64,000 nt of DNA, taken from the NCBI RefSeq assembly GCF_964204645.1, contig NC_134025.1, forward strand, positions 18,265,101 to 18,329,100. Direction: 5' to 3'. The DNA comes from Tubulanus polymorphus (lineage: Eukaryota > Animalia > Nemertea). Positions 1,173 to 37,489 of the stretch are shown one piece after another (the stretch's first letter is position 1; each line of letters starts with the position of its first letter). The position numbers and the translations under genes are program-made. The notes beneath the pieces were generated by a model. That model was not told the DNA's origin and searched no databases. It saw nothing but the letters and a program-made list of their open reading frames with translations.

Positions 1173-1176
1173 AAAT

Positions 1177-2200: not shown

Positions 2201-2399
2201 AAGTTTTAGAACCTGAGTGTGACCGAGTATGGCAGATTTCACGATAACGGGTACCAGTATCTACCAAAATTGCATTTGATTTTTAAAAATGATTTTAGTG
2301 AACTGAATAATTTTTGAGAATATCATACTATTCTCTTCATAAAAAAGACCTGTTTTGGAACATTGAAGTGGAACCGAGCATTCACTTAAAACATGATGC

Positions 2400-2900: not shown

Positions 2901-2939
2901 TAAGCAATACCCTTGCTAAACAAGCTCGAGTTTTCAAGG

Positions 2940-3610: not shown

Positions 3611-3618
3611 ATCATGTT

Positions 3619-6499: not shown

Positions 6500-6574
<75 letters not shown>
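6500..6574. repeat. (TA)n microsatellite
   Basis: Perfect TA run, read directly. Confidence 0.98.
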
Positions 6575-6575
<1 letters not shown>

Positions 6576-8239: not shown

Positions 8240-11225
8240 TAGTAAAATCACGTCATGATTACGTAGTGTCTTGATATAATTGATTTTATATGCCACTTAA
8301 ATGAATGCATAATTGGGGGACATGAATATTATAATAACTCTGTGACTAGGTAGTGTCCAGATATGAATAGTTTTATATGCCAATAAACTGAATGTAGATG
8401 TGTAGATACAATTAGTAAAATCACTTCATAATTAGGTAGTGTGTAATATGAATATTATAATAACTCTATGATTAGGTAGTGTCCAGATATGAATAGTTTT
8501 ATATGCCAATAAACTGAATGTAGATGTGTAGATACAATTAGTAAAATCACTTCATAATTAGGTAGTGTGTGATATGATGGGTTTTATATGCTATTTTACT
8601 GCATGTAGAATTGTAGGACATATATAAATAGTAAAATCACTTCATCATTAGGGAGTGTCCAGATATGGTGGGTTTTATATGCCACTTTACTGAATGTAGA
8701 ATTGCGGGACATAATGAATAGTAAAATAACGTCGCGATTATCTAGTGGGCTGATACGAAGGGTTTTTATACGCCACTTAAATGTATGTAAATTTGTAGGA
8801 CATATATGAATAGTAAAATCATTTCATGATTAGGCAGTGTCCTGATATGCTTTTGTATGCCACGCAGCGTAATGTAGAATTACAGGACATATATAAATAA
8901 TATTAGTTCTTAGGTAGAGGGTCAAGATAATTAAAAATCCATAGGAGCAAAAACCATACAAATCGCATTTTGTAATGAGTAATATATATTTATTGTAGCG
9001 AACGTTTTCCGGAGTAACATTATCCCCTCTTCAGGCATAGCGCGCAAGTGATTAAATGTTCATATCATACTGGTATTTATATAGAATAGGACGAAGCTAA
9101 TTACAAACAATTTCAATTAACTGAGTGACAAGATGATTACAATATAAAGATAATTAATTATACACAATCTAAATTACTGAGTGAATATATTTGACTAGTA
9201 GTTAATTATCTAAAAACGTATTATATGAAAATTTAATCACTTGCGCGCTATGCCTGAAGAGGGGATAATGTAACTCCCGAAAACGTTTACTATAATAAAT
9301 ATATATTACTCATTAGAAAATGAGATTTGTATTGTTTTTGCTCCTATGGATTTTTGATAAATAATATTACTGCATGATTGGGTAGTGTCCGGATTTTAAT
9401 GTTTTTATATGCCACTTACTTGAATGTAGAATTGCAGGGCATATTTAAATAGTGAAATAACGCCATGATTATCTAGTGTCCTGACACTAATGGTTTTATA
9501 CGCAACTTAAATGTATGTAGAATTGTAGGACATATACGAATAGTAAAATCACTTCATAATTAGAGAGTGTCCCAATAGGTATGAACGATTTTTTTCATAT
9601 GACATTTAACTGGATGTAGAATTGTAAGACATATATAAATAGTGAAATCACTTCACGATTAGGCAGTGTCCCGATATATGTGCCACTTAATTGGATGTAG
9701 AATTGCAGGACATAATCAAATAGTAAAATAATGGCATGATTATCCATTGTCCTAATATGAATGGTTTTATACGCCACTTAAAATGTATGTAGATTTGTAG
9801 GACATGTACGAATAGTAAAATCATTAGGCAGTGTCCTGATGCCGTAGGTTTTATATGCCACGCAACTGATCATGTACAATTGTAGGACCTACACAAATAG
9901 TAAAATCATTTCAGGATTCGGTAGTGTCCTGACATGAATAGTTTTAAATACCCCCTAAATGAATATAAATTTGATGATGAGTTCTATATGTTGCGAAACT
10001 GATTAAAGAATTGTAGGGCATACATAAATAGTAAAATCACTTCATAATTAGAGTGTCCCAATATAAAGGGTTTTATATTCCACTTAACTGAAGGTAGAAT
10101 TGTAGGACATATATAAATAGTAAAATCACTTCATCATTAGAGAGTGTCCCAATATAAAGGGTTTTATATTCCACTTAACTGAAGGTAGAATTGTAGGACA
10201 TATATAAATAGTAAAATCACTTCATCATTAGAGAGTGTCCCAATATAAAGGGCTTTATATGCCACTTAACTGAAGGTAGAATTGTAGGACATATATAAAT
10301 AGTAAAATCACTTCATCATTAGAGAGTGTCCCAATATAAAGGGTTTTATATTCCACTTAACTGAATGTAGAATTGTAGGACATATATAAATAGTAAAATC
10401 ACTTCATCATTAGAGAGTGTCCCAATATAAAGGGTTTTATATGCCACTTAACTGAATGTAGAATTGTAGGACATATATGAATAGTAAAATCACTTCATAA
10501 TTAGAGAGTGTCCCAATATAAAGGGTTTTATATTCCACTTAACTGAAGGTAGAATTGTAGGACATATATAAATAGTAAAATCACTTCATCATTAGAGAGT
10601 GTCCCAATATAAAGGGTTTTATATGCCACTTAACTGAAGGTAGAATTGTAGGACATATATAAATAGTAAAATCACTTCATAATTAGAGAGTGTCCATTGT
10701 CCTAATATGAATGGTTTTATACGCCACTTAAAATGTATGTAGATTTGTAGGAAATATACGAATAGTAAAATTATCAGGCAGTGTCCTGATGCCGTGGGTT
10801 TATATGCCACGCAACTGAATGTAGAATTGTAAGACATCCACAAATAGCGCCCTGATATGATAGTTTTATATGCCACCTAACTGAATATAAATTTGTACTG
10901 CACTTAGCTGATGCAGTATTGTAAGACATATATAAATAGTAAAATGCTTTATGATTACCGTAGGTAGTTTCTTACGAGTCGAGTTTTCTATGCTGCCTAA
11001 CTAATTATAGATTTGTAGGACATATAAAAATAGTAAAATCACTTCATCATTACGAAATGTGCCAATATGAAGGGTTTTATATGCCAGCGATATAGAATTG
11101 TATATATAGAATTGTAGGACATATGTAGTAATAGACATAAATAGTAAAATCATTTTATGATTAGGTAGTGTCCAGATATGATGGGTTTTATATGCCACAT
11201 AACTGAATGTAGAATTGTAGGACAT
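8240..11225 (+). repeat. 91-bp satellite array, homogeneous core ~10020-10690 with diverged flanks
   Basis: Unit aatagtaaaatcacttcatcattagagagtgtcccaatataaagggttttatatgccacttaactgaa.gtagaattgtaggacatatata recurs at 10116, 10207, 10298 and onward (period 91). Confidence 0.95.
8933..9355. mobile_element. Inverted repeat (~125-bp arms), Penelope pLTR-like, with minimal hammerhead motifs
   Basis: 8933-9057 is the reverse complement of 9231-9355. Each arm contains CTGAAGA-GGGGA..TCCC/G-GAAA-ACGTT. The element interrupts the 91-bp satellite. Confidence 0.7.
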
Positions 11226-11520
11226 GACTAGTACAATCAATGCAAGATTAGATATTGCCCTGATGTAATTATGATCTTTCAAGAACCGGTGCGATTCGTG
11301 AAGTCTCTTTTCTCTGTCATAAATAAGTTTAAGAAGACTTTTTAACAATCCTTCAATACAGTGTTTAAGATGGATACAAAAACGATGTCCGACTGCACAG
11401 TTCTGGCTTGAATGGCATTAGTTTGAAGTATTTGCTCACAAAAGTTACAAATTATCTCGAGAAAACTGATGAAACACAAAAGTGAACAGACTAGCAGTGT
11501 ATGCCTGACATATCTGCATG

Positions 11521-12105
11521 TCCGTTCCTAAATTCTAATTTTTTTTTGGTCTGACATCGATTTTTTGAGTTCCCTATAAACTAAACTTTTCAACACATAC
11601 CGGGTACCTCAATTAGGTCTTAATACGACCAGTGAAACTGTAAGTAAATCATCGTTTTATCCATTTTAAACTGTTTTGCATTGGAGGATTACTAAAAAAA
11701 AGTCTTCTTTAACTCATTTCAATTAGAGAAAATAGACCCCATTTAATGAACTACCGTTACGTAAATCAATTTTAACAATATTTTTCTATGCCTAGGCCCT
11801 TGCCATTTGAAAATGTTTGCAAATTATTCAAAGAAAATCATGGTTCGTAGGCACGGAAACACAAGAAACATCTTAGAATTTCAAAAAATGGCTGATCTTT
11901 TCTGTTTTCGACACGAGAAAATGAAAACCCTTTGGCAATAATTCAATACAGTCTAAAATGGCTATAAAACGAGGATTTATTCAGGCTGCACAGTTACCGT
12001 ACACTGGTCGTTAAGACCAATTTAGGGTATGTGTTCAAAAAGTTAAGCGAAATATCCCAAAAAGATCGATTTCACACGAAAATAAATTAGCCTTATGCCC
12101 GCATC
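11521..12105. mobile_element. Old fold-back/MITE-like element with diverged ~120-bp inverted arms
   Basis: 11521-11645 (..ttttcaacacatac..ggtcttaatacgaccagtg) is an imperfect reverse complement of 11995-12105 (cactggtcgttaagacc..gtatgtgttcaaaaagtt). Confidence 0.55.
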
Positions 12106-12191
12106 TAAAATTGATTAGTGACATAAAGTCGGTATTTAACGGTTTTGTTCGGTATTTAGGGCTACCGGTTAGTTCGTTGCTGCGTTGAAGG

Positions 12192-12250
12192 TAGTCTAGT
12201 ACCTAGCCGTCGTTCTAGGGAACCGGTAACAACGACCGGTATTCAGACTA
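12192..12250 (+). mobile_element. 59-bp mini-MITE with TAGTCT...AGACTA ends and a 9-bp TSD
   Basis: Flanked by CGTTGAAGG at 12183-12191 and 12251-12259. Confidence 0.85.
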
Positions 12251-12582
12251 CGTTGAAGGTCGTTGCTGCGTTGTAAACAACCGGTGGACGTGCAATATTT
12301 TCATTACTACATTTACGCCCGTTTCATTAAAATTCTGGCTACAAAATTTCTTATATTGACATACATTGTACCGCATTTCTAATCAGGATTGCAGAAAACG
12401 CTAAATTCATTTACACACACATTCAACTATACTTATAGGCCTATAGTACACCAGCACTAGCACATTGGATGTGAGTAACCTGTCCTTGTTAGTATTTAGT
12501 AATCGGTTGGTGGTAAGCTATTATCTAATAAAATAAAGGCCTCCTCCCAGCTAATCCCTGATGGCCTGAATACCATCTGACC

Positions 12583-12684
12583 TAGTACTAGTCTGAACAG
12601 ACTGTAACAACTGCTGTTCAACAGTTGTTGTTACGGTTCCCTACCTACAACCTGTTTGGAAAACAACGGCTAGGTACTAGACTA
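12583..12684 (-). mobile_element. 102-bp copy of the same mini-MITE family, opposite orientation, 9-bp TSD
   Basis: Flanked by CATCTGACC at 12574-12582 and 12685-12693. Its reverse complement starts TAGTCTAGTACCTAGCCGT, like the copy at 12192. Confidence 0.85.
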
Positions 12685-13452
12685 CATCTGACCTTACTAG
12701 TAGTATTAGGCCCTATCTCTAGTCTTGACCGAGTCATCTCAGATAGGCTTGTAATTTGTACTTTTACTGCTAACGTTGATAATATCCAGAACTTAGAGAG
12801 GCCCTAGAGTATATACAAATAGGCCTACAAATACCTACCGGTATAGGAATTGTCGTGGTTTGTAAAACAGTCCGATCATCATAGAAACCAAACCTGATGT
12901 GCTGACTGATATTCCGCGCTACAGGCTGATACTTTTACCACTGCACAGTAGGCTACAGCTAACCTGCTGAATCAGCCTAGATTATAATCCAAATACCGGT
13001 ACCAACCTGTCATTGTTACAGGTTCATTGTAGGACATGGACCGGCCTATAGCCATGCCTGCTTATTAATTAGTTTCACTTATTTAGGCCCCCTAGTAGTA
13101 GGCCTATAGTGATACAGAATTCTAGCATATTTAGGCCTTGAAGCTTGGAACTAAGCACCGGTGTTGCACAATGAATTTTTTCTTTATTGTATATTTTTGA
13201 CAGCCAATTTTTGTAATTTATATCAAGTGCTACTGCTATTGATATGATATGCAGTGACGTGGCCGTTGGTCTAAATGGTTTTTTTTTGCAAAAATCAATC
13301 GCTTAATTCTTTTTTATTTTTTTTATGTTTCAAGGTGAGGATTTGTGTTCTGCCCAATTTGCAGTATTAATATCTCGGTTAATAGGGCAAAGATACAAAT
13401 AAGCCTGCCCATTATCATAGCACCTTATTCTTGGTTGTATTTTTCAGGTGAG

Positions 13453-16264
13453 ATGCCGAGACGCATGACACCAAGTCAGGTGGCTCTTGAATTTATTAAA
13501 TTTGGCAAAGATCCAGAAGAGGCATTCGAAAAAAAAGTTGTCAATAGCGAAATAGGTAGGCTAAATTATACCTAAATGGAATGTTTTAACCCTATCAAAC
13601 CCTAACCCTCCTGACCTTCTAGACCCCAACCCTATCCTAAACCTAATGAGGCCTATAGGCCGAGAAGTGTTTTTGATATATAATGAGGACAACATAATCT
13701 TTAGCCCACTTGGGACTTAAGTCCCAGTGGACTATTGCGTTCACTTTTCATCTGTCGTCCGTTTGTCCATAGACGGAATCAAGTTCTTTTGGGAAGTTTT
13801 GAAGTCGCTTCAATGGATTGTCTTGATCTTTAGTTTTTACATGTATCTAGATACATCTTCTGCCCGAAAACTGGCCTGATCAGAATCAAGATGGCCGACT
13901 GGTTGCCATTGTTGTTCAGAAAAATCAGCACTTTTTACATATTTTTGATGTTATTAAGGGAAATTTTGAAACCCTTTGATCAATTATCTTGATCATTCAC
14001 ATCTGTTTGTATCCCCGGTGCATCAGCATAAGAAAAATTGTGTAGATCAGACTTAACATGGCCATCATGTGACCTTTTTTATGCCCAAGGTCATTTTTGG
14101 CCTGAATTCCGAGATCTGGTTATACTATGAGAAGGGCTCTTACACAGGCCTATCAGACAGATACTTTGATCAGTCAAGCGTGATGCAATCAGTGACCATC
14201 TTCGTGTCATCAGTCCTCAGAAAAAGGTTTTTGAAGGAAACTATGGACAAGTTTTGACTTATAGTCTTGATATTTGATATAGGCCTATAGTATCGCTGTC
14301 ATAGTATTCATCTCCTCACGTGGAATTGGGGTTACCCGGGTTTTTGTTCTCACCACCAGGGAGAGTTGAATATAGAATTACATACAGAATTACAGAATTG
14401 GTACCTATTGATATTTTGTATGAGTTTCAAGGTCATTGGTATGGTAACCACAATGAATGGCAAAATTGTATCTTGTGACATATTCTATGATTATGGGGCC
14501 GATTCTTTTATGCAGTCCGTATTCTCCGGATTGAATATCCTGATTTGTGCATAATGGAATAGTTGTTGAGAATCAAAATGGCGGCTTCCGTAACTTTTCT
14601 GAGTTTTAGGAGGCAAAATTCATGCGTCGCCATTTTGTCACGTGGTCTCTCCGCAATCACACCGGTCGACAGATTGGAGAGAATGGACTCTCCGAACTCT
14701 CCAGAAATAGTCACCTGATCAATAAAAGAATGGAAATGGAGCGTCCGGATTATCCGTACTGCATAAAAGAATCGGCCCTAGGCCACCAGGGGCATTGAAG
14801 AGCTAAATAACTTTTATTATATTATATTAGTATTTTCATATTGTATTGGTCTTGGTCATATTGTATTTTGTAACCACAATCAATTACAAAATTGTAGCTC
14901 ATGACATGTTCCATCATTGATTGTGGTGAGTTGTAAGGTCATTGCTTTCTTAATATGTTCACCAGGGGGCGTTGAATATTCCGTTTGTTAAGCATTTCTA
15001 ACCAATTCCCAAGTGGGCGTGGTGTCCCTGGACCACTAGTTTACTAAATTACTGCTGCATCTGTATGATATCCACTTTTTTATAGAATATCTGTTGTGTC
15101 AGTCCGTAGACAGAATCCAGTTATTTTGGGAAGTTTAGAAAACACATGGATTGATGTTTGGTTTATACATATATTACCCTGAAACACCTACAGCCCAAAG
15201 ACTGGTCCTGTCAGAATCAAGATGGCAGATTTCTGTTTGCCGAAATCAGCATTTTTACAGATTTTGATGTTTTAAAGGGAAATCTTTTAAGACGCTTCAA
15301 TTATCTTGATCTTTCAAATAATATTTTTAATGCCCAGGGGCCCATCAGCATTAAAACAATTGAGTTGATCAGACACAAGAAGTCCGTCCTGTGACCTTTT
15401 TGGTGCCCATATAGCTCAAAAATCTCAGTCTGAAATCCTCAAAAACCTATATCGGTAGCTTCCTTGACTTAATAGCAGAAACTGAGTATTTCCATATCAT
15501 ACCTATTAATACATTGGCATATTTTGTTACCACAATACATAGTAAAGACATAAATAAACAATCAATGCAAAATTTATGTCATGGTTTCTGTAGTTCACCA
15601 GACGTTGAATATTAACATTTCCAGATGGTTGAGCATTTCAAACCTTTTCTCATCTGGGCATGGTGTCCCTGGACCCTAGGTTTTAATGTAGGACCTGAAG
15701 GAATGGTTTTTAATCAAAGATAATACTTTTTTCTGATTAAGGATATGGATTATTCACAAAGAAAGCAGTTTGTAGAGGGGATTTTTTGGTGGAATATCGT
15801 GGGCTACTCCGTGATGTGAAGGAAATCGGGGATGACGATACATATGTCTTTGAATTTCAAGACAAAAAGTTCAGTTCTCTGTGGTATGTAGGTCTATTGA
15901 TTTTCTAACCAGATATTGCCCATCAGGCTACTTAGTTTACACTTTAACTAAAATAAGTCATTCAAAGCCTAACTGTTACCTGTAGGCCTGTATCATAATT
16001 TGATACCACCCATCTTCTTAAAGTATATTAGGCCTAATTGAATACTCTAAATATGACTTTTACCATTTCAGCATTGATGCCTCAATTGATGATGGTAGTT
16101 TGGGACGGCTCATCAATGATGGGTGGGGTGGCAAAGAAAACTGTAAAGCCAAAACCGTCATATCTGAAGGAAGGCCCCATATTGCATTTTTTGCTATTAA
16201 GGACATACCCCCCAAAACAGAATTGCGGTATGATTACGGGGTGACTGATTATTGGTGGAGACAG
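13453..16264 (+). CDS. SET-domain exons (SETD8/PR-Set7-like) of the multidomain gene
   Basis: IGYGLFTKKAVCRGDFLVEYRG ... CIDASIDDGSLGRLIND ... FFAIKDIPPKTELRYDYG..YWWR contains the GxG, EYxG, RxxN and ELxYDY SET motifs. Confidence 0.9.
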
Positions 16265-19200
16265 GTAAATTATGATGATTTATTTTCATCCAATTTTGTT
16301 GCAGCGAAGCTCTCATTCAGTTAGAACCTTACCCTCCCCTTCACCATACATCCATACTTTTTGTATACGCTTTAGTGCCTTATAGTAACAACCTCTAATG
16401 CAAGCATTTGTGCATCAAAGAATTAGCCCTAAGTTCAAAGCTTGTAATTTTTATCAGAATGACGACTGAAGTTGTCAATTGAAAAAAAAGTATCGTGAAC
16501 ATAACCTCAATATCTCCAATTATCCTTGACAGCGGGTCCCGAGAAGAAAGCAGTTTATGATTCGTAACGCTTGTCTTTATTAATGAATTATCAGTAAATG
16601 ATTTATGCTGGTGTTGAAAAAATTAAACTTTGGTTATGAGTTACGATGGTCCAACATCAATGATCATACTACATGGAGTATGGTGCATACAGCAGTTTAT
16701 AAATGCAAACCCCCTCCCATACACAACCATAGACATTTTAATACAAATTTTCAAACCCCCTCACCCTTCTCTGTGTGTATGTACTGATCCTAAGAACATC
16801 GACTGATCAATTTCTTAATCACGATAAAAGTTCCTCTACAACTAATCATTGTACTATAGATACGCCGTGTAGTATCTTTGTTTCTACTGATGCATTTGGG
16901 TACCATATTGTATTTCTGTGCTGCATGAATGAGCTACATTTGCTTATTTGCTGATTTCTTCACTGCTTCCATTATGCCATTCTGGAAAATTATTTTTGTA
17001 TTCAACATATAAATAGGCTTCTAACAAAAAAGAACTTAATGCCTCAGGTAAGCTTGTTAACCTGTTGGGATTAAAATTTTCTAGATTGAGTCAAACTTGC
17101 AAAGTACACCCAGCATGCTGAAGCTTGCGATTGTCATTAGGCCTATGTAGATGGAATTTGGTTTAAGCATGGAGAATAAAAGCAAAATGAGTCTATCATA
17201 TTCAAATGTAAATTTCAGATTTGCCTTGCATTTCATGGCTTACATAAAAACTTGCTGTATACAGGCTACATTTGCACCATGAGATTTTCTTCATGTACTG
17301 TGTGTGATAACTGTGCATGAATCTGAATTGAGGGTGTCTATCAGGAATATGTGTTAATTCTGCGGTTAATAAATATCATTGGACTTTGAAGATAAGATAG
17401 GTTATGTTAGATGCAACTTGCTTCTTATAGGTATGCCCTATGATGGTAGATGATTCATTTTCATACACCAACGACCATAAACTATCATTACCCAATTTGT
17501 ATAAGTGAATGATACAGTATTGGCTTAGAAGCATTAGGTTGGAACACAACCAAGGGCGGGTAGTTGAATTATGCCTTTTATTATGCACATATAAATCCAG
17601 CTTGCATCCACCCCTCAGAAATGTTGCTCTTTTTCTCTATAAGATTTGTATGTCCATAAACTCAGTTTATACATTTACCGGTATACTTTGTTGAGCCGTC
17701 CACCAGAACAGCAGAAATAGACGAATTTGAATCATTTTGCATGTGATAGGCCTAACCTTATATATATTCTAACCTTATATATATTCTATATATATATATC
17801 TGTTGTATGCTTTTCAATTTTTATGGTTCCCTTTTGTTTCATTGAATTATCTCATAATGCATATTTTAGATAATGAGCAATGTTAAGCATGTATTCTTTG
17901 TGTAAAAAAACTTAGGTTCAGTCCTATTGGCCACCCACCATGATAAATGTTTTGTTTTAAGGTGAATACTATACAGTGTTATAATTTCCTGATGGTCTAA
18001 GTATGTATCGTTTGATAAAAATATATTTTTAACATCAATGAAATTGGTTATTATTTATGTTAGAAATAATCCATTCTCATGAAGTAAACATGATCTTTGA
18101 AATGCATGCAGGGGCGTATCAAGCGGGTGGTCTCGAAGGTCTAGACTCGTGCCTTCCCTTTGAAGTTGCCCTTCGTACAGAGATAACTTAAACCTATAAA
18201 TTTAACATCTCAGAAATTTCATCTTTAAGGGTTGATTTATTCAAAAGTGTATCTAACCCTAGATGGAGGGACCCCCCTTAACGAATTTGATATGGCTGCT
18301 TTAACCGAAAATGCCTCGTATTTACTTTTTGAACCCGCCTTGCAATTTTCCTATTTCTACCCTTGGCAGGTAATTTGATTTCTTTCCCTACAAATTGAAC
18401 GGTAGGATTGGAAAAAAGACAGTAACCAGGCATACATGTTTTGTCGATTTTTTACTTTCTCTTGACACACTCAAAATGAGGTTGATATAAAACCATGTAA
18501 TTTTCATGGATCACATTCAAGATGGTCTACTGGCAACATGTAAGCCTATATTTTGGGAAATTACCTACTCTAGGTATTGTATTAACACCCTGTAATTTCA
18601 TTTTCAAGATAATGTATTGACTTCCAAGTCTTTTCGTCAACACAAATCTGGTGAAAAAAAAAATCATGATTCTTGTTCTGGTAAGTAAACTCATGAAATA
18701 ACTTAAGCTTGTATAATGCAGTAATAATTGGCAGCAGATTGCTGTATCATTGTATCTGTCATTTGATTTTCTAGATAATGTATTGACGAGTAAATGTTCC
18801 AGTGATGATTCAAAACAAGTTTCTGAATTCACGTGTTCTGGTAAGTTTACTCATTATGTAAATTTTTAGCTTGTATAATGCAGTAATAGTGGTCAACAGG
18901 TTGCTGTATCATTGTATCCGTCATTTGATTTTCTAGATAATGTATTGACGAGTAAATGTTCCAGTGATGATTCAAAACAAGTTTCTGAATTCACGTGTTC
19001 TGGTAAGTTTACTCATTATGTAACTTTTTAGCTTGTATAATGCAGTAATAGTGGTCAACAGGTTGCTGTATCATTGTATCCGTCATTTGATTTTCTAGAT
19101 AATGTATTGACGAGTAAATGTTCCAGTGATGATTCAAAACAAGTTTCTGAATTCACGTGTTCTGGTAAGTTTACTCATTATGTAACTTTTTAGCTTGTAT

Positions 19201-22200
19201 AATGCAGTAATAGTGGTCAACAGGTTGCTGTATCATTGTATCCGTCATTTGATTTTCTAGATAATGTATTGACGAGTAAATGTTCCAGTGATGATTCAAA
19301 ACAAGTTTCTGAATTCACGTGTTCTGGTAAGTTTACTCATTATGTAACGTTTTAGCTTGTATAATGCAGTAATAGTGGTCAACAGGTTGCTGTATCATTG
19401 TATCCGTCATTTGATTTTCTAGATAATGTATTGACGAGTAAATGTTCCAGTGATGATTCAAAACAAGTTTCTGAATTCACGTGTTCTGGTAAGTTTACTC
19501 ATTATGTAACTTTTTAGCTTGTATAATGCAGTAATAGTGGTCAGCAGGTTGCTGTATCATTGTATCCGTCATTTGATTTTCTAGATAATGTATTGACGAG
19601 TAAATGTTCCAGTGATGATTCAAAACAAGTTTCTGAATTCACGTGTTCTGGTAAGTTTACTCATTATGTAACTTTTTAGCTTGTATAATGCAGTAATAGT
19701 GGTCAGCAGGTTGCTGTATCATTGTATCCGTCATTTGATTTTCTAGATAATGTATTGACGAGTAAATGTTCCAGTGATGATTCAAAACAAGTTTCTGAAT
19801 TCACGTGTTCTGGTAAGTTTACTCATTATGTAACGTTTTAGCTTGAATAATGCAGTAAAAGTGGTCAACAGGTTGCTGTATCATTGTATCCGTCATTAGA
19901 TTTTCTAGATAATGAATTGACGAGTAAATGTTCCAGTGATGATTCAAAACAAGTTTCTGAATTCACGTGTTCTGGTAAGTTTACTCATTATGTAACTTTT
20001 TAGCTTGTATAATGCAGTAATAGTGGTCAACAGGTTGCTGTATCATTGTATCCGTCATTTGATTTTCTAGATAATGTATTGACGAGTAAATGTTCCAGTG
20101 ATGATTCAAAACAAGTTTCTGAATTCACGTGTTCTGGTAAGTTTACTCATTATGTAACTTTTTAGCTTGTATAATGCAGTAATAGTGGTCAGCAGGTTGC
20201 TGTATCATTGTATCCGTCATTTGATTTTCTAGATAATGTATTGACGAGTAAATGTTCCAGTGATGATTCAAAACAAGTTTCTGAATTCACGTGTTCTGGT
20301 AAGTTTACTCATTATGTAACGTTTTAGCTTGAATAATGCAGTAAAAGTGGTCATCAGGTTGCTGTATCATTGTATCCGTCATTAGATTTTCTAGATAATG
20401 AATTGACGAGTAAATGTTCCAGTGATGATTCAAAACAAGTTTCTGAATTCACGTGTTCTGGTAAGTTTACTCATTATGTAACTTTTTAGCTTGTATAATG
20501 CAGTAATAGTGGTCAACAGGTTGCTGTATCATTGTATCCGTCATTTGATTTTCTAGATAATGTATTGACGAGTAAATGTTCCAGTGATGATTCAAAACAA
20601 GTTTCTGAATTCACGTGTTCTGGTAAGTTTACTCATTATGTAACTTTTTAGCTTGTATAATGCAGTAATAGTGGTCAACAGGTTGCTGTATCATTGTATC
20701 TGTCATTTTATTTTACAGATATTTCATTGATTCGTGAGTGTTCTGGTGAAAAGAAAATTTCTGAATTCACAGTTTCTGGTAAATAAACTCTATTTCTCTA
20801 TTCATATGTGTTAAAAGTTCTATATTTAGTAAAGGGGCATATAAAACCTATCCTACCTTAATGAGAAAAGATTCACCATATGTCCTACAATTCTCCATTT
20901 ACTTAAGTGGCATATAAAACCATTCACATCAGGACACTATCTAATCATTAAATAATTTTACTATTTATGTATGTCCTACAATTCTGTACTTGGTTAAGTA
21001 GTATATATAACCCATCATATCTGGTCACTACCTAATTGTGAAGTGATTTTACTGTCTATATATGTCCTACAATTCTACATTCAGTTAGGTGGCATATAAA
21101 ACCCTTCATATTGGGACACTCTCTAATGATGAAGTGATTTTACTATTCATATATGTCCTACAATTCTACATTCAGTTAGGTGGCATATAAAACCCACAAT
21201 ATCTGGATACTGCCTAATGATGAAGTGATTTTACTACCTATGCATATCTTACAATTCTACATTCAGCATATAAATCCCATATCAGGACACTATCCCAAAC
21301 CCAATATCCTTTTCAAACAAGTTGAAATAGACCTTTCCTGTTCATGAAGAATTTGAACAATTTTATGCATCACAATTCTATGTTACATTATAATCTAATA
21401 CATTATATCACCATTGCATGCTTTACTTATGTTATGTTGCAATAATTGTCAGGTTGCTGTATCATTATATCTGTCATTTGATTTTCAAGATAATGTATTG
21501 ATGTGATGATATAAAGAAAGTTTCTGAATTTACCTGCTCTGGTAAATTAACGTATTGCATAATTCTTTAACTTGTAACATGCAGCAATAATTGTCACCAT
21601 ATCATTTATTTTTCAAGATGATGCATTGACATGTGGCCCTTCTGGTGATGTTGACAATGATTCTGAATCCACCTGTTCTGGTAAGATAACACTTGTTTGC
21701 ATAAGCAGTTATAGTTGTTCACAATTTAATAGCTGTATCGATGATATCTACCGTATTTATGCAGTTACTGATAGTTACATAGCTTTATTATTCACAAGAT
21801 GCACATTTCCAATAATCAGCTATTTGAATGATTGAACATCAATGAGCTGCCAATATAGTTATCTTTGGAATTTGTTTTATTCCCAAAATTGGACTAGCTA
21901 ACACTACTTACCCACTGATAATTGAAATATATATTTTCTTCAAATAGTTTTTGAGATGTTTTGGCTTTTCTCTACTTTTAGAATTTTCAGATGGCGAGGA
22001 ATTACTTGAATCTTCGATATCTCAAGCTATAATAAGTACGTTACATTTGAAGTGTACTATACCTTTAAACCTGGTTTTTGTTCATCCTAAACATTCATAT
22101 TTTGTGAGTGTAAGGAAAACGATCGACTTGCAAGATAATGCCTTGCGAGAAGAAAGTCAAAATGCAATCGGTCTTCAGAGAGTGAAATCATGTAAAAGTG

Positions 22201-25200
22201 GTTTCCCTTCTTTTGTGGGTGGGGATTAGAGCACATTGTACGAACTTTTGTCTTTCAAGGAGCACATACTTTGTGGACAAGACATGTCCTAAAATGCATC
22301 AAAAACTGTGATATAAAAATAAATTGCAATCCATATTACTTTACACTCCCTATTTCATAAAAAATATCCTTCGGTCGTTGAAAGTGTTGAGCATAGCTTG
22401 TGTCATTAACACGTAGATACTAAGGGGGAGGGTCAATGCCGAAAAATTATGCCAGTATGGATAATTGAAATAATTGAAACTAATCTATTTAGGTTTTCTG
22501 CCACATGACTATGATAGCGATGAAGAATTACCATTTTTTTATGAAAACAAGGAGGGAACCTGCGGTAAGTGAACGTTATGATCTTATCTACCTTAAAAAG
22601 GTGCATATTAACTGAAAAATCTTACACATTAACTGAAAAATCTTGTTCTAAAGTTGTATTAGGCATATTGCGTTCTAGTGTCAATTGTCCATCCATAGGT
22701 AGAATCAAAGCATTTTAGGAAGCTTTGGAGATATTTTAAAGGATTGTCTTAATACATGTATCTAGTACTTTTGAGACAACTGCAGCTCAAAAACTGGTCT
22801 TATCAGATTCAAGATATGTGACCAACAGCATTTGTTCAACAAAAGTTTTCATGGAGAACTTGTTTGATGTTTGGTATATATAATATATGTATCTCTGCCC
22901 AGAGCCTATTACTACTGGAAAAATTGGATCAATCAGAGGAAAATGGCGTAGTCTCTGTAGTAGTCTCTGTAATCTGTAGTCTCAATTTCTAGATCTTTAG
23001 ATATGTTTGGATCAGGCAAATTTTGAGTCATCTTAGTCTCACCAGTCCTCGCTCATGGTTGGAATGGTTTTTTTTTTAAGGAGGGTACCAACAATTTTAA
23101 CTTGTTATTTATGTTGTTGTTATTTATGTTGAATTTGTTTTGTTGAATAGAAATTATCCGATATTGTTCTCCCCACTAGGATTAATTTGAACATTGAAAT
23201 TTACTTTGGAAATTTGAAATTTACTTTGGAACCATTCAGTTTTGTACCTATTATCTATTGCAAAGTGAAAAAGCACATGAAATTTTCTGTCATTTCATTG
23301 ATTTTCATGGAAAATAGTTTGTGTATTCGCACCAGCAGGAATTGAACATTGAAGTATTGTTAGACAGAGGTTAGAGTGATAAAAACTTGTAGTCCAATGA
23401 TGCCTTCAAAAATAACATGAAATAACGCAAAGATGTTATCAATGTATGTGAATATTAATTCAACAGTTTCTACGAGGTCAAAAAGTCAAAAATTCAGTTC
23501 AGTAGGATATTTGTTTTTTAGATATTGGATTTAGATACAACTTTGACAAGATTTTTATTGAGAAGCCGGAAAATTGACTTTTGATTGTATTGAATTGGGT
23601 ACATGTAAAATGGCTAGGTCTACCAGATTTGATTTAAATTCATAAGAATAGATCTGCAACACCAAACATGTTAAATTTTGGTGGTAGTTTCCTAGGTATT
23701 CATTAACACTTGATAGATGTCTTTTATTTTATCTTCAGCTACTACCACTATTGATTACTCAAACATTCTGAAGATGCTCACTCTGAGTGCACAGAAAAGC
23801 TATGAGAATCTGAAAACTACTGTTGGCTATTTTGCAAGTAGGATACGGGAACTTGAGTATAAGTGTTTGGACAGAAAACTGATGGTACATGGCAGGTCAT
23901 TAGAAATTATGCAGAAATGTGGTGATATGGTAAATGGGGTGCTCATGCCTGCAGATGTATCTGGTGATGGTAACTGTTTGTTCAATGCAGTATCAGTCGG
24001 TCTTTGTGGGTGTGAAGATCTAGCAACTGAACTTCGTGTTCGCACTTGTATCGAAATGGTTGAGAATTCTGACTTCTATCAAACTCGAAGTATCGAATTT
24101 GGATTCGATTTGATTTCACCATCCTTCGCAGATGCATGTATTGCTTGTGCAATACACAACAGTTATTCTTCGATGCTGACAATACAGGCACTCGCAACAG
24201 TTATTGATAGGAGGATAAGATCAGTATACCCCTCGGTTAATGGGTTATTGGATAATCGTGTGCCTATAATGAACCATATATTAAATCCAAGAAAAAATTT
24301 GACTGGCACATTGAGGCAAGCACCTTTACTCGTAATGTGGACTACACATTCAGAACTTAAACCTGGACACTGGAATCCGGATCATTTTGCCCCTTTACTG
24401 CCAAAAGATGTATTTGAACCGAAAGCTGGAACCTCTTCACAACAGGATGCAATTATAAAGAAAAAAAGGCAAATTGACTCATCTGACTCTGAAGATCAGT
24501 CAATTGATGTTGACATTCCAAAAAAGCGGAAAAAAAGAAAATGTATATCAGATTCTGAAGATGATTACATTCCTGATGACGATCTATGTGATAGTGATGA
24601 TGATAATCTCCATGAAATTGATCCAAATGATAACGATATTGAGGAAGAAGACTTTGGAGATTATCTGTCAAGACTGTCGGCTCATTTGAAACATGTTACT
24701 GTTCCGACATACCAGTCAGTAGATGGCAAGCGGGACTACCGAAAGGCAGATTATTGTTTGTATTGTAAGCGTGTGTTTACTTCGAAAATATCCTCGCATT
24801 TGTGCAGTATTCACGCGTCTGAACCAGAAATTATAAAGTACCATCTGATACGCGATCCAAATGAAAAAAAAAAACATATGCGCTTACTTCAGAATGAAGG
24901 AAACTTTCGGCACAATTGTAAAGTGATAAAAGAAGGACATGGTACGTTGGTCGTTGTCCGTAGACCCAATAAAACGGATAAACCACCAAATGCAGTGGAC
25001 TACGTACCATGCGAATTTTGTAAGGGTTTTTTCTACAAGGGATGCCTTTCCGAGCATGCGACACGTTGCCACTTCAAACCAATGGCAAAACAACCAGACA
25101 TCAATTACATAAGAACCTCTCGAAACATGCTATCACCATTTGTACCAAGAATCGATGAGGATACGGTTGCATTAAACTTGATATTCAGCAGAATGCGAGA

Positions 25201-28200
25201 AACAGTTGCAAACCCTGGCATTCCTGGCATTTGCGAAAAAGACGAATTAATTGGTGAATTTGCTTTGTCATTGTACTCGCGTTTAGGCACTGCAAAGGAG
25301 CAGCGCCGAAAAGACCTAGCAAACTTGAGAACAAAGGTCCGTTTACTCGGTATGCTACTGAAAGCCCTGAACGAGAACAATGGCGAAGAAAACTGGATAT
25401 CGCTTTCCTCGTACCTGAGAGGGCCACATTTCCATCAGATAGTCAAATGTGTTAAGAAGTTAGCTTTGGAAAAAGATTCCCCGAGTGTGGCAATAAATTT
25501 GGGGATTTACATCAAACATTGCATTGTCCTCAAAATGAGCATGGGGATTTTTGAAGGAGACAAAATTATGCAAGAAGAGGGAAGAGATTTCGAAGTAGTT
25601 TATCGGGCCCATTGGAACAATACTGTTTCGTGTGTTGCTAATCGAAGGATTAAACTTAGGAAACTCAATCAAGGCAATACACATCCAGTGGCAGATGACT
25701 TAGTAGTCTTTAAAGATTGGCTCGACTCTGAAATTGATAAAGCGTTGATGATACATGAGCCTACTTCAAAACAGTGGAAACATCTTGCTTATGCTGTTCT
25801 TGTCCGTATAGTCCTTTTCAACCGAAGGCGGATATCAGAAGTGGAAGAAATGATCATGAGCGATTTCGAAAATATTGTGCCGGATGCCGATCAGAATCAA
25901 GAGATCCTGCAATCACTGTCTCTAGCTGAGCAGCTTTTGGTCAAACGGTAATTGTTGTTTTAAAATTGTCTTAGTCATATGCTCTTATCTAATTTACAAG
26001 ATATGTTGGGTTGATTTTGGAGAGTTTTTTGTAGAATGCGTGTAATAGAAATCCGAGGGAAGAGCACTCGCAGTATTCGAGGTGTATACATTCTGCTTAC
26101 TGAGAAGATGGTTAAAGCTATCGAACATATCCTCGATACCAGACAAAGTACAAGTGACTTCATTTTTGCTAGGTAACATCAATTCTGAAATCAATTAGAC
26201 TTGTGGCATTCTATTTAGCATGTATAAAAGACGTGTATAAAAGACGTGTATATAGCGTGTATAATAAGAACATTCAACAACGTATATCTGTTGACATTGA
26301 CAATTTGGATAGATTTTACTTCTATCCATCTTCAGCGATTTAGAAGAGTTTTTATATAACTCTGAAGATGGATAGAAGTCTATCTGAAATGTCAGTGTAA
26401 AGTTTCACAGATAAAGCTATGTGGGTCTTTCTAGGAAGAATGCTATTTTCTGATTTATACAGTGTTTGCACTTTCCTATTCAAATAACATTAACCCATTA
26501 ACAATTGCAATACGGATTTTGAATGTTTCTTGAATGGATTCGATTAATGCAAGGTTTATTTTATTATTATTAAGGTACAATCATTCCCTTTTTGAATGTC
26601 AATTGATTAATAGTCCTGATAAAAATCTTAATCTCTCATCACAACTGATATAGTTTTGTTCGTGGGCATCTACATGCTGAATAATCAAATAAGTTAGTGC
26701 TTACCAGGCCATGCAGCCATTTTTTAGAAAAATGTCTTTGTATACAGTATATACTTTTTTTAGTTCATATCGTGACAGGTTTTGTGCAAGCATTGCAAAT
26801 CCATCATTCATTTTAGGAAACGTGCTGACACACCACTTGACGGTTGTACTGCAACGCGTGAAATGACAAAATTGTGTCCCGGACTGAATGCACCTGAACG
26901 AATTAGATCGACGAAGCTCCGATCTTTCTTTGCAACTACACTACAAGTAGGTTTATCATTTACCAATGAACTAGGATTAGTCTTATTGCAAGCATTACAA
27001 ACCTCTTTAAAATACAAACCACAGTATTACAATTATAAATGTTGTATATTTATATTACCTGATTAATAACCTGACAATTTAAGACTACATGTATATGGGG
27101 GATTTTTTTCTGTCTTCCTGATATCAGGTGTTATCTATATTCAAAGGAATCATTAGGTTAATTACTTACTGAAATTTAGAGGGCATGTGACCGTTAAGGT
27201 CATGTAATCATCTAGACAGTACTTGATCATGAAAGGATTTTCCCATTATATATATATCCTACAATTCTACATGCAGTAAAATAGCATATTAAACCCATCA
27301 TATCAGAACACTACCTATTTATGAAGTGTCTATTTATGTATGTCCCACAATTCTACATCCAGTTAAGTGACATATAAAACCCATCATATCAAGACACTAC
27401 CTGACCATGAAGTGATTTTTCCTATTTATGTATGTCCCACAATTCTACATTCAGTTAACCAGTATATAAAACCTATCATAAAAGGATGACAAGTGATAAT
27501 AGACAAGTGCTGATATCGGATCCTGTATAGGCCTAAAACATCCGTATCAGGACATACCTTATCATGAAGTGCTTTTACATGTACTATCATACAAGCCTAA
27601 TTTCCAGCCCTGTATGTATTAGTGAATGAAATTTTTAAGAATATAAAATAGAACCTTCATTCATCAAGAATATCTATAAAGAAGGTAAAGCTCTGGTCTT
27701 CGAAAGACATAACAAGCAATGATTATAATAAATCAATGATCGGCTATAATGATACTTGTGAATGGAAATTATATTGTGAAGTGATTTGAAATGGATGAAA
27801 GCCCTAAAGCCAGTATTTGGGTTTATAACTTCAGATTTTGTCTATGAAGCCCAACGAGTTGAAGATGGTGGCTGATCATATGGGGCACGATGTGAAAATT
27901 CACGCAGATGTATATTGCCTCCAATCTTCACTCGTTGAAAAAGCGAAGGTAGCGAAGGTGCTATTGGCTGCCGAAAATGGCATTATGGCAAGATTCAAAG
28001 GAAAGTCATTGGAGGATATTGATCCCGATGGTAAGTCTGACTTTACTGATAGATTAAATATTTTAGTATTCTCTGCTATGACAGCAGTCACCCGTGTGTG
28101 TGTATGTGTACATGTGCATTTATTCATTGATAACGTTTTAGCACTCCCATTATCCTTGGATTATGCCGATAAGTGGACTGAGTGTGAAGACAGTGAAAAC

Positions 28201-28632
28201 AGTGATGACAGTGATGACAATGACATGGTCGATGCAGAAGTTCCGCCAAAGATGGAAACTAACCAATCTGAAGCGCAAAGTAAGTTCATGGATAGGGTCC
28301 ATAGTGATTAAACCACCTTATGGACGGTATAACAATCCTAGGGGAAATGGGGCCTATTGTGAGAACCTATCAGTAGTCTTGATGCAATGGTTTGTGTAGC
28401 ATTTTTATATGATTTTGTTTCAGATGAGAAGTCACGTATTAAGAGGGCACCCTGGACAAAGGGAGAAACAGATATTTTTTGTAAGATATTGCATAACTAT
28501 TTGAATAATAAGCGAATGGCACCAGCAGTAGACTTGAGAAAAGTAGTTGAAGAACTTGGTGGTAGCCGAACTTTGCCTCAGGTTCGAACGAGGCTACATA
28601 ATATTATCTCGAAGAAGCAGAAAACGAAATAA
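13453..28632 (+). CDS. Spliced multidomain protein (~1,530 aa): SET - microexon repeats - OTU protease - Zn fingers - tyrosine recombinase - Myb/SANT-like
   Basis: Manually joined, phase-compatible GT-AG exons: 13453-13555, 15742-15883, 16072-16264, 17017-17047, 18609-18680, 12 x 66 nt (18775 + 162n, to 20622), 20719-20778, 21618-21680, 21982-22035, 22493-22564, 23739-25947, 26035-26172, 26817-26946, 27835-28030, 28142-28279, 28424-28632. Total 4602 nt with no internal stop. The SET and OTU-YR blocks are well supported; the small linker exons are less certain. Confidence 0.8.
13700..15042 (-). mobile_element. Near full-length HINE-like family B element in intron 1; a second partial copy at ~15090-15682
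   Basis: Begins tttagcccacttgggacttaagtcccagtgg (hairpin) and ends tcccaagtgggcgtggtgtccctggaccactagttt. The subterminal IR is gcccacttggga/tcccaagtgggc. Reverse of 53815-55017. Confidence 0.7.
14496..14778. mobile_element. MITE nested in the family B element (Harbinger-like GGGCC ends)
   Basis: GGGCCGATTCTTTTATGCAGT ... ACTGCATAAAAGAATCGGCCC form 21-bp perfect TIRs that extend imperfectly. The TSD is unclear. Confidence 0.8.
18609..20778 (+). repeat. 162-bp tandem array: 12 near-identical copies of a 66-nt exon plus 96-nt intron, with diverged end copies
   Basis: Each unit is ttttctAG|ataatgtattg...gtgttctg|GTAAGT and encodes DNVLTSKCSSDDSKQVSEFTCS in phase 1-1. Exon starts are 18775, 18937 ... 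20557. Confidence 0.93.
20875..21295 (-). repeat. 91-bp satellite copies (reverse orientation) in an intron
   Basis: tatatgtcctacaattctacattcagtta.gtggcatataaaaccc is the reverse complement of the 8240-11225 unit. Confidence 0.9.
23739..25947 (+). CDS. Large exon: OTU-like protease, acidic/NLS linker, C2H2 and C2HC fingers, N-terminal part of the tyrosine recombinase
   Basis: SGDGNCLFNAVS...WNPDHFAPL (OTU Cys and His boxes, vertnin-like), PKKRKKRK, CLYC..HLCSIH, CEFC..HATRC, LFNRRRISE. 744-aa ORF without stops. Confidence 0.92.
26035..28632 (+). CDS. Tyrosine recombinase catalytic exons and Myb/SANT-like C-terminus
   Basis: EIRGKSTRSIRGVYILL; FIFAR; IRSTKLRSFFAT; VADHMGHDVKIHADVY; final exon KRAPWTKGETDIF...RTLPQVRTRLHN, TAA at 28630-28632. 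Confidence 0.88.
26295..26400. ncRNA. Degenerate minimal hammerhead ribozyme pair (Penelope-like relic) in an intron
   Basis: act-CTGAAGA-tgGATAGaagtCTATCt-GAAA-tGTC-agt at 26359-26396, with an inverted copy immediately upstream (acttctatccatcttcag). Confidence 0.5.
27250..27590 (-). repeat. 91-bp satellite copies (reverse orientation) in an intron
   Basis: gtatgtcccacaattctacat.cagttaa...atataaaaccca units. Confidence 0.85.
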
Positions 28633-30145
28633 TATAGGGAACCTCTAAATGTATGGCGTAAATATACTGTCAAAATTAAAATAGCATTTTTGACGCGTCA
28701 ATCGATGCGTCAAATTCACTTTATTTATGTTTTGTAATAATTACGTTATTGTTTAGCTGTAGCAAGAACGTACATATAGAACATAGTATTGATTGTTTTG
28801 CCATGCGAGTGAGTTTTGGAGAAAGTTGGACATGCATATATAATGCACCAAGATAGCGATCGTAAATCCGAGAAAAATACATTTTTTCGCTCAAAACTAA
28901 AATTTACTCATTTGGTCGTACTGGACCCATGGTCCTAATTAAAGATATGTGAAACTTTGTTTTTGCCACTAAGCACTGTGCCCAATGTAAATAATATCTA
29001 TATATTGATATTCCGTATGTGGAGTTTTCTTTCAATGATTGCTTGTTTTTGTTCTGATCGATTTCTCCTTTTATTAAAGCGCAATGATTACTGTTTAGAA
29101 GAAAATGTTTAAACAAAATCAAATATATTACCGGTATATAAATTGTTAAAGCAGTAAATGAAAAATGACCGATCTGAATAAATGTTAGAATTTCCCTCAT
29201 GCCAGTCTTACACCTGTTATAGAAATGTAATGAACTAGATTACAGGAGAAAATGTGGAGAAGGTTTTTTTTTTAATGATGTGAACATAAGTAAATGGTGT
29301 ATTTTTGTAGACTAATCTCATTCCTATCAGGTATATTTGTTGTAGGCCATTGATTTCAGGTTGAGAACATAATGATTAAAAAATGTGATTAGTTTCTGTT
29401 TTATCTGCAGTTGACAAAATATCATACAATCCAATGACTACCGGTATAACATATTTGATTTGGGATAGTAAACGCATCGAGTTCCAGGTCAGCTAATCTT
29501 TACACAATTCTTATGAAACATAGCATGAATTTCCATATTGGAACTTGAATTATCGCCTAACTGAAATAACGAAAATCACTGGTCCTAAATGATTTGAGTC
29601 AGAAGGTATCGACTGTATTTTGAATGTATGACATGAATAATATTAAAATATTCCATTGGCAGAATATCCAACTTCCTCGTGGTTTACAATTCTAGGGTTG
29701 ATAAATATATCAGAATTATCTTGTAGAGTTTGTAAATTTGCTAATGCTTTTTTCCTAATAAAGAGATTTCCAATTTTCATTGAAAATTTTGTTTTGTTTC
29801 TGTTGTCAGATGTATCTGGATATTGAAAGCTTTGAAAGGACTTTCATTCCCTCAATTAGAGCCATATTTCAAAAATGTGAATAGAAGTGAAGAGTAGAGA
29901 ATATTCCGACAAAGCAAGGAGAAATATGGAAGTTGTATACCTTACTTGGACGAAGCTCTGTAGGAAAGCCTATCGCAATTGTTATGAATCGACCCAGACC
30001 TGTTAGAACCGACTGTTGCCCGGTCGCTTACAATAGAATAGGCAGTGAGATAATTCGCTGTTTAGTAATGTCTAAGCGTTTGGCCTCAGGTATTCCACAC
30101 GAAGGGCATAGTTTCAGTTATGTTACATGTATAGGTGCATGTATT

Positions 30146-30317
30146 TAATTCATGGGGCATATAGGCCTATATAAATTGTGAGGTTTGCATATCATTAGCA
30201 TATAATTATACATATATGCCCCAGAAACGTATATAATTCATGGGGCATATAGGCCTATATAAATTGTGAGGTTTGCATATCATTAGCATATAATTATACA
30301 TATATGCCCCAGAAACG
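30146..30317. repeat. Perfect tandem duplication (~87-bp period) with internal IR, followed by a TA microsatellite at ~30383-30441
   Basis: taattcatggggcatataggcctatataaattgtgagg...tatatgccccagaaacg occurs twice; ggggcatata/tatatgcccc are inverted. Confidence 0.85.
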
Positions 30318-30391
30318 GGTATTAAAATAGCACCACACAATTGGGTTTGAGCCCACAAACCCCGTTAATAGTATGTTTTCAGTATATATAT

Positions 30392-30441
<50 letters not shown>

Positions 30442-31485
30442 GTGGTAAGTATTTAGTCAATATATGACGTATTTTATACACTACTACTAGTACTACTAAA
30501 CTTTACTATAATTAAGTACCGGTATTTTTAAAATATTACACTCTTTCTGAAAACAGGGCTTACGACGCACAATAGTTACCATATCCCATTAAATACAGTA
30601 GGGCCTACCCGGTACCAAATATTTTAATTGCCACTGTGGTCATTGCGTATATAATTCTGTGAGCGGTCCATATCAAGGCGACTCAAGGTCTTCTTCCCAG
30701 CAATTGGGAATACGAAACCTAGAACTGTTTAAAAATGTTAATCATGATTTCCGATGTTGTGGCTTCTGGGATAAAAGTAATCGTCATATATCTAGCAAGT
30801 GAAAACAAGACAGCTGAATCTCCAAAGAAATCGGCATTTGATGTGCCAATGTGCCCACATAGAGTTACCACCAAAAAGGTAAAAAAGTAATTCACGTGCA
30901 TACAACTCAATTGCCATACCCTGTATTTTACATGTACTGGTAATTTATTTTCATAAAACTCAGTCACTGTAAAAATGAATTTAAGAGCTTTGGTCAGATT
31001 TTACATTTTGTGTTATACCAGTAGGTTGAATAGCTTGGGTGGTAGATATAGTGATGAGCGCTGATAATGTGAATTGTACCAGGGATTCAACGGCCAGTGC
31101 TATACAAGAAAAAGTGTGAATCTTTATTCTTTAAAACATTGCTTTCAGAATCGGTGAGCTGAATAGTTTTGACAGGTTATAAAATGCAGTCATAGAATTG
31201 TGTAAAAAAGGTGTAGCGTGGTCAGCGAATTCGGTCTCAACCGCTGGATCGAGATTCATCAATACTCTTTCTTAGGTTTTATGGTGAGTTTAAAAAGATG
31301 ATTTTGGATTTAATTATTTGAAGCAACCGGATACACTGTGGTATACATGTTTACATAGCAGCGTAATTTAATACTTGGTGAAGAGGTGTACTAAGCAATT
31401 ATGGTAGCATGTACTGGTATTATCCATTGACTTTTTGGTTTTTCTTGAGCATTTACATTCGTACAATTTGTTTTGTTCTATTCAG

Positions 31486-37450: not shown

Positions 37451-37489
37451 TGAGATATGTTGCAAATTGTTTTTGTTTATGATTTCAGG

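Follow-up and report, generated by a model that had tools for sequence, protein, structure and literature searches.

A multicopy element of the nemertean Tubulanus polymorphus, probably a tyrosine-recombinase transposon that encodes SETD8-like and OTU domains in the same protein

Some families of CryptonV, a group of animal DNA transposons with a tyrosine recombinase and without reverse transcriptase (RT), are described as inserting specifically in microsatellites (PMC8869645, citing Kapitonov & Jurka 2012, Repbase Reports). The name CryptonV is also listed in PMC4455052 and PMC5753468, in the passages of both that bear on these elements. Here we describe an element that would work in a similar way in a window of 64,000 nucleotides (the whole stretch of DNA that was analyzed) from the nemertean Tubulanus polymorphus (NC_134025.1, positions 18,265,101 to 18,329,100 of the forward strand). 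A unit of 23.8 kb lies between two (TA)n runs of the window, occurs in several copies and carries one spliced gene. We consider it likely that this unit is a recently active autonomous DNA transposon moved by its own recombinase, and that one protein would join this recombinase to two further enzymes, a methyltransferase resembling SETD8 and a protease of the OTU type, which would modify chromatin or shield the protein.

Compared by description and not by sequence, the element would work like CryptonV: both are animal DNA transposons with a tyrosine recombinase, no RT and insertion in microsatellites. In the window (TA)n stands on both sides of the unit, and relatives end at GT, GTAG or GTAA runs with differing flanks. 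Unlike CryptonV as described in the cited passages, which do not mention them, the element has SET, OTU, zinc-finger and helix-turn-helix (HTH) domains and a size of 24 kb; some of these features may be noted in Repbase entries. Mobilization by a recombinase alone is also shared with CryptonA, F, I and S, and a C48 cysteine peptidase is known from some F and S elements of oomycetes (parts of PMC3212892 and PMC13465315). The relevant part of PMC3212892 describes animal CryptonA and I without a C-terminal domain or terminal repeats and places the C48 peptidases in oomycete elements, whereas the window element has both a C-terminal domain and terminal repeats. CryptonA and CryptonF differ further, as DUF3504 (at E 0.01) and GCR1_C matched 0 of the 64 aligned members of the window's recombinase family.

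Other large transposons resemble the unit in part. Helentrons carry OTU proteases and sometimes SET domains (PMC4067079, PMC6431247), but as far as these descriptions go they use rolling-circle Rep/Helicase chemistry and encode a Clr4-like SET in a separate open reading frame (ORF). Starships and nimaviruses, too, are large elements of eukaryotes that depend on a tyrosine recombinase for their movement, and nimaviruses are described as targeting microsatellites (section of PMC10871703). Starship DUF3435 clusters came up by Atlas features at 0.89, which we treat as a lead only, yet DUF3435 matched 0 of the 64 members. Unlike Starships and nimaviruses, the unit holds a single intron-rich gene and no cargo or viral genes. 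DIRS and Ngaro differ in their RT and RNase H. The first-pass annotation of this DNA had set the element apart from DIRS for this reason, and rightly so for the ORFs scanned: neither RT nor RNase H was found in 6575-30382, and the only RVT_1 match of the window (44887-45228) lies outside the unit. As a multicopy eukaryotic DNA transposon with a recombinase and with neither of these enzymes in the scanned ORFs, the element fits a Crypton in the broad sense.

The titles and abstract starts of the papers retrieved from the PMC open-access set and bioRxiv contained no SET- or OTU-fused animal recombinase transposon, although Repbase and Dfam may hold part of this. The available portions of PMC13465315, PMC10942377, PMC9004415 and PMC12153100 say nothing on the recombinase family of the window. 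Elements of this class have probably been catalogued before; the fusion with chromatin enzymes and the link to KMT5A genes set out below appear unreported.

The evidence for mobility comes from copies and ends. In Tubulanus polymorphus, NCBI lists 7 near-identical models, spread over 5 chromosome-size records, with 0-4 residue differences from the window. Because two pairs of models are non-overlapping halves on one record each, these point to about 5 loci, of which 2 would be split. In run X1, four contigs within 1145-6337 have a depth of 40-47 and the next contig, which begins at the left (TA)n run, has a depth of 195 (from 6584), a gain of about 4-5-fold. Long contigs, including those over the SET exons, then stay at a depth of 167-246 up to 30000. 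Raw reads of run X5, from a different sample, show a noisier step at the same place and in the same direction. The only long TA runs of the window are the two that bracket the unit. Both termini begin with CT beside TA and share TATTAACGGG/GATTAACGGG...GTTTGT, and their alignment score of 26 was reached by 0 of 2000 random internal 100-mers. We set the limits of the element at 6575-30382 because of the depth step at the left (TA)n run, the presence of only two long TA runs and the inverted similarity of the ends.

Relatives end in the same manner. The metagenome loci L073 and L074 share 99.6% identity as far as a single junction and then continue as (GT)n/(GCGT)n in one and (GTAG)n in the other, with unrelated flanks; L063 and L064 both terminate in (GTAA)n-type runs and have different flanks. 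Contig ends at microsatellites were excluded as evidence, because assemblies break there anyway. In Lineus, 7 models on several chromosome-size records fall in one 90% cluster. The first-pass annotation had proposed a large tyrosine-recombinase mobile element and had named a single-copy syntenic locus as what would speak against it. With about 5 near-identical copies, a sharp left end at (TA)n and an integrase fold (see below), the proposal is supported, and the ends, the (TA)n target and CryptonV as an existing name go beyond it. The element is intact and young, and that it is self-mobile and directed to microsatellites seems to us highly likely.

The gene lies on the + strand. It runs from an ATG at 13453 to a TAA at 28630-28632 through 26 GT-AG exons, which gives 1,515 stop-free amino acids (aa); adding a 54-bp exon at 21982-22035, also used by the NCBI models, gives 27 exons and 1,533 aa, in agreement with the stop-free frame of about 1,530 aa read initially. 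Residue positions below follow the 1,533-aa numbering. The domains come in the order SET (aa 1-146, three exons), cassette repeats, OTU, zinc fingers, recombinase and HTH. The cassettes comprise twelve exons of 66 bp in a 162-bp tandem array, which encode a 22-aa Ser/Asp/Cys repeat, together with five more exons that are either related to these or linkers. A 2.2-kb exon (23739-25947) follows, with OTU, an acidic linker, the two zinc fingers and the first half of the recombinase, and 3' of it are three recombinase exons, one acidic exon and the HTH exon. NCBI model P0017 corresponds to the last six exons of the window in 1006 of 1006 residues. A linker exon is required because SET exon 3 ends in phase 0 while the repeat exons begin in phase 1. 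The distant relative L037 has introns at the same places and in the same phases before the two SET exons, between them and after them. A 52-bp repeat-like segment at 21490-21541 was ruled out as an exon, as its length breaks the frame. Strong splice donors or acceptors occur in the left arm at 7164, 12512, 13335 and 13448; these suggest non-coding 5' exons, and transcription may thus begin close to the left terminus.

Table 1. Features of the element and its gene (window coordinates)
Feature	Positions	Strand	Evidence or remark
Whole element, ~23.8 kb	6575..30382	+	Left end by depth, right end inferred
(TA)n run at left end, likely target site	6500..6574	.	TRF
(TA)n run beside inferred right end	30383..30441	.	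TRF
Left terminus, imperfect inverted repeat of right terminus	6575..6606	+	Local alignment
Right terminus, inverted with respect to the left one; subterminal CCCACAA immediately inward	30355..30382	-	Local alignment
91-bp tandem arrays, left arm	8240..11268	-	Same unit as 20878-21266 and 27210-27480, inverted
Coding exon 1, start of SET region	13453..13555	+	Aligned with N-termini of SET-recombinase relatives
Intron 1, high-copy host repeats nested inside	13690..15680	.	Very high depth, loose ends; related copies elsewhere in window
SET exon 2 (GxG, EYRG)	15742..15883	+	Motifs, alignment to relatives
SET exon 3 (RLIND, ELRYDYG), SETD8/KMT5A-like	16072..16264	+	Pfam SET; 14 best PDB sequence matches
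Candidate linker exon, phase 0-to-1	17017..17047	+	Best donor, poor acceptor
Phase-1 cassette exons	18609..22564	+	Tandem array; NCBI models use part of them
OTU-like cysteine protease (DGNC...H)	23900..24400	+	Within exon 23739-25947; Pfam E 7e-6
Two zinc fingers, C2H2 and C2HC type	24755..25070	+	Sequence
Tyrosine recombinase core-binding and catalytic domains, 4 exons	25229..27973	+	AlphaFold2 model, fold matches, catalytic residues
Last exon: Myb/homeodomain-like HTH and stop	28424..28632	+	Weak Pfam match; fold match

For the recombinase, a fold search was needed because a PDB sequence search with this half of the protein gave nothing under E 0.5. The AlphaFold2 model of the C-terminal 632 aa, built on a 64-row alignment, has a pLDDT of 88, and its best fold matches are XerH (Z 15.4, root-mean-square deviation 4.5, 306 residues aligned), the integron integrase (14.7), Tn1549 Int (13.4) and Cre (13.0), with XerA and lambda Int also among them. 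In this model the C-terminal region is an integrase with core-binding and catalytic domains, so that the fold on which the first-pass annotation had made its reading depend is present. The active site R..K..R..H..Y claimed there was also recovered, as R1225, K1273, R1345, H1371 and Y1380, with the same five residues in 64 of the 64 aligned relatives. The C-terminal part matches Pfam Phage_integrase (E 3.8e-7), and Pfam detects the recombinase in only 6 of the 64. In a quick unrooted tree of 33 rows, which contained no known Crypton rows, the window recombinase groups with Lineus and mollusc proteins (SH-aLRT support 100).

The SET and OTU signatures reported at first reading (GxG/EYxG/ELxYDY and DGNC...H) were located in the spliced protein, and both domains score above the Pfam cut-off. 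The SET motifs are GYG 35, EYRG 52, RLIND 94 and ELRYDYG 132. The SET exon matches Pfam SET at E 3.6e-8, and the spliced domain matches a profile of 13 relatives at 2e-38 and aligns end to end with their SET. All of the 14 best PDB sequence matches are SETD8/KMT5A; by sequence the domain, with its GxG, YxG, RLIN and ELxYDY motifs, is therefore closest to this enzyme. The OTU domain has DGNC at 604 (Cys607) and a downstream H743, with an Atlas value of 0.93 to OTU clusters, and lies at the same position in relative P0075. The second zinc finger is nearly invariant among the 64 relatives. The Myb match of the last exon (E 0.0076) falls under the Pfam cut-off, yet the last 65 residues, when modelled, match homeodomain/Myb-type HTH folds with Z up to 8.8. 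Pfam found no GCR1_C in the last exon or in P0020, and the C-terminus folds as an HTH. Of the domains that the first-pass annotation had fused, SET, OTU, zinc fingers and recombinase thus stand; the Myb-like one stands as an HTH fold, and SET would be joined to the rest through a candidate linker exon.

Relatives are numerous. In a library of 50% representatives we obtained 6,077 matches at E 0.001 and 724 at 1e-30, with OTU and repeat matches counted in. The named relatives are from nemerteans, molluscs, ants, a wasp, a hemichordate, sea urchin, fish and amphibians. Domains were counted in the 76 of 148 new representatives that have at least 800 aa. SET is present in 14 of these long relatives, within the first 250 residues in 11, BRCT in 3 and chromo in 1. 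P0094, P0156, P0172 and P0196 have BRCT or chromo where SET would be, and this replacement suggests swappable chromatin modules. With a fish SET-recombinase as query, the SET fusion appeared in 60 of the 120 matches listed, a share biased by the query. As judged from these sequences, the SET-recombinase fusion is recurrent across animals and OTU is rare. Loci L078 and L079 also occur in intron-less form, as L055 and L057, and therefore the relatives seem to be transcribed and spliced. A decayed paralogue of the same recombinase family lies 7 kb off in the window (37430-38445, +; about 340 aa, 33% identical to P0002); it has stops and frameshifts and retains the second zinc finger and the FNRRR motif. 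An OTU profile had 0 matches in 80 metagenome loci.

Several observations weigh against one fused and active product, and part of them concerns the joining of SET to the downstream domains. All 7 NCBI models begin 3' of SET and none has the SET exons. Between SET exon 3 and the repeat exons there are 66 stop-free linker candidates and none is clear-cut; the one at 17017-17047 has the best donor of the interval (10.7 bits) and a poor acceptor (-8.9). SET exon 3 was found in 0 of 83 candidates among proteins of >175 aa, in a weak search. If exon 3 were read through, the product would be SET alone, about 166 aa long, with a stop at 16322-16324 and AATAAA at 17175 and 17368, and short SET-only models are numerous in sea urchin and Hydractinia. 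The same transposon might accordingly make separate products, namely a short SET-only mRNA that ends in intron 3 and a downstream OTU-recombinase mRNA. We find this unlikely because the phase-0 donor at 16264 is strong and conserved in L037, because many RefSeq models of relatives have SET and recombinase joined in one protein, and because the NCBI starts in this gene are intron read-ins of the repeat array (e.g., MHNSGQQVAVSLYPSFDFL). Homology to the relatives instead makes it likely that SET, OTU and recombinase are made as one polypeptide.

The remaining contrary points concern the relatives, the enzymes and the depth data. SET is missing from 62 of the 76 long relatives and OTU was found in 1 of the 76. 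The closest named spiralian proteins (P0049, P0050, P0051 and P0053) are without SET or OTU, and their models may be shortened like the Tubulanus ones. SET exons were found in 1 of the 80 metagenome loci, most of which are short, and the spliced relative L057, with a 970-aa frame, has no SET match. Enzyme activity is not guaranteed, because the His of HxxR in the recombinase is mostly Thr (58 of 64; Arg in 5, Ser in 1) and because the SET domain has, throughout the family, ND where SETD8 has NH. The depth data reach 30000 only, with the right end at 30382 placed beyond them, and X1 may be the source sample of the assembly itself. The ND residues, together with the shortened insert region of the window SET and the variety of accessory domains among relatives (BRCT, chromo or none), would fit SET and OTU as passengers without activity or without a role in transposition, e.g., histone readers or relics. 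This is less probable still, as GxG, EYxG, RLIN and YDY/YNY are conserved from nemertean to fish, amphibian and sea urchin, and the Cys and His of OTU are retained both in the window and in P0075. With regard to SET, we incline, on balance and with some reserve, towards a domain that would be active on chromatin to the benefit of the element. Many introns, nested repeats, a low copy number and two apparently split copies of about 5 are what one would see in a domesticated host gene or a segmental duplicate that is not self-mobile. We regard such an origin as very improbable, given the depth step exactly at the TA run, the inverted ends, the copies on 5 records that differ by no more than 4 residues, the complete catalytic set, the relatives with identical ends in differing flanks and the decayed paralogue 7 kb off. 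A fragment of an endogenous large DNA virus, integrated by a tyrosine recombinase as in nimaviruses, is the least credible of these explanations. Nimaviral recombinases are described as having a C2H2 finger, 5 of 7 catalytic residues and microsatellite targeting (passages of PMC10871703); however, there is one gene in 23.8 kb, the ORFs scanned in the arms gave no further Pfam match and no cargo, viral contigs yielded 34 pattern matches and 0 relatives, and viral integrases are only remote fold matches of the recombinase (10-16% identity).

The SET domain links the element to a published expansion of KMT5A-like genes. SETD8 monomethylates lysine 20 of histone H4 (H4K20). Hydractinia has 65 KMT5A-like genes and sea urchin 61, most of which have an N-terminal SET; 22 are activated in early Hydractinia embryos, and the paper interprets the genes as host methyltransferases (PMC10368294). 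The "novel predicted KMT5A genes" of Hydractinia, Hydra and sea urchin are described there as long proteins with an N-terminal SETD8-like SET and conserved C-termini, as in the window. In the S8 table, DNA_BRE_C is given for 3 of 13 genes activated at 4 h, and the word "recombinase" occurs 0 times in the main text. Two sea-urchin loci flagged as KMT5A-like in that paper fall in the P0128 cluster, and P0128 is a SET-recombinase of the window family (match to the recombinase core at E 7e-62). According to the expression data given there, these two linked loci are nearly silent in embryos. A recombinase domain is therefore present in some of the "novel KMT5A genes" published for Hydractinia and sea urchin, two of which, both from sea urchin, are members of the window family.

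The element contains further repeats. The 91-bp tandem unit, which occurs in three places, is mostly element-specific as depth suggests. Two 88-bp tandem copies at 30141-30317, each with an internal 24-bp inverted repeat, lie 65 bp inside the right end and are possible subterminal binding sites. CCCACAA occurs near microsatellite junctions in 6 of 56 flanks against 0.2 expected, a motif picked after viewing the sequences, and stands within about 40 bp of the junction in several members of the family that are unrelated to one another, at L056:163-220, L063:9389-9448, L074:9010-9069 and window:30349-30358. As a conserved recombinase site it is a lead only, because the choice was post hoc and the 6 occurrences come from about 4 independent elements. 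X5 raw-read depth at 24020-25822 is about 2x that of neighbouring introns (at 90% likeness), which GC bias or more distant extra copies may explain. Rfam had 0 matches in the window.

Elsewhere in the window, exons of a host zf-C4H2 (ZC4H2-like) gene lie at 41008-41415 and 55575-55922 (-; Pfam E 1.8e-11 and 1.4e-21), and a decayed non-LTR (long terminal repeat) retroelement at 43200-46110 (+) holds the RVT_1 match. Related copies of a decayed DNA transposon, which we take to be pogo-like, occupy 47955-53740 and 60952-63527 (91-95% identical), the former with a Tc5/psq HTH at 52417-52980 (-). Decayed multi-exon coding relics at 31450-34860 (+) and 1270-2150 (+), with peptides DDKAVIPLG and FSDGCASQYK, have no Pfam match and presumably resemble DDE transposases. 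An interspersed repeat family of very high copy number, whose members contain 154-bp internal repeats, is found at 520-1174, 13690-15680, 36525-37450, 40612-40870 and 53816-55028, and the second of these copies is the one nested in intron 1 of the element.

Tyrosine recombinases excise circles through a 3'-phosphotyrosine, a covalent tyrosine intermediate. In the mechanism we propose, the recombinase would bind the two imperfect inverted ends and excise a circle through this intermediate, possibly helped in the choice of ends or target by the C-terminal HTH and the zinc fingers. The circle junction would then recombine with a tract of (TA)n, since such targets are abundant and safe, and the inserted element would be flanked by TA on either side although nothing had truly been duplicated. 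Least secure are the roles of the two other enzymes. SET may write H4K20me1 near the element or its target and so keep it transcribed or accessible in the germline or early embryo, and OTU may strip ubiquitin from histones or from the protein itself, shielding it from ubiquitin-driven decay.

Recombinase transposons of animals are a poorly described group, for which the element now supplies a young and intact copy together with defined ends and a target. Excision, the formation of circles and targeting to (TA)n can thereby be tested directly. Annotation has missed the link between SET and recombinase, with Pfam recognizing so few of the recombinases and NCBI omitting the SET exons of this gene. 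If the fusion of a transposase with a histone methyltransferase and a deubiquitinase is true, a transposon would itself write host chromatin marks. The element also ties the puzzle of at least 60 KMT5A-like genes in Hydractinia and in sea urchin, many of them on at genome activation, to mobile elements instead of host enzymes, and many "extra" histone methyltransferase genes of animal embryos would be such transposons. A wider and more tentative view, which we put forward as possible and do not favor, is that of an animal-wide superfamily of microsatellite-targeting recombinase transposons with a fused active SETD8-like H4K20 methyltransferase, joined in some lineages by an OTU deubiquitinase. 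These transposons would be switched on at zygotic genome activation and would write host chromatin against silencing or for integration, and the dozens of KMT5A paralogues reported as expansions for hydrozoans, for sea urchins and for fish would be these transposons, unrecognized in print.

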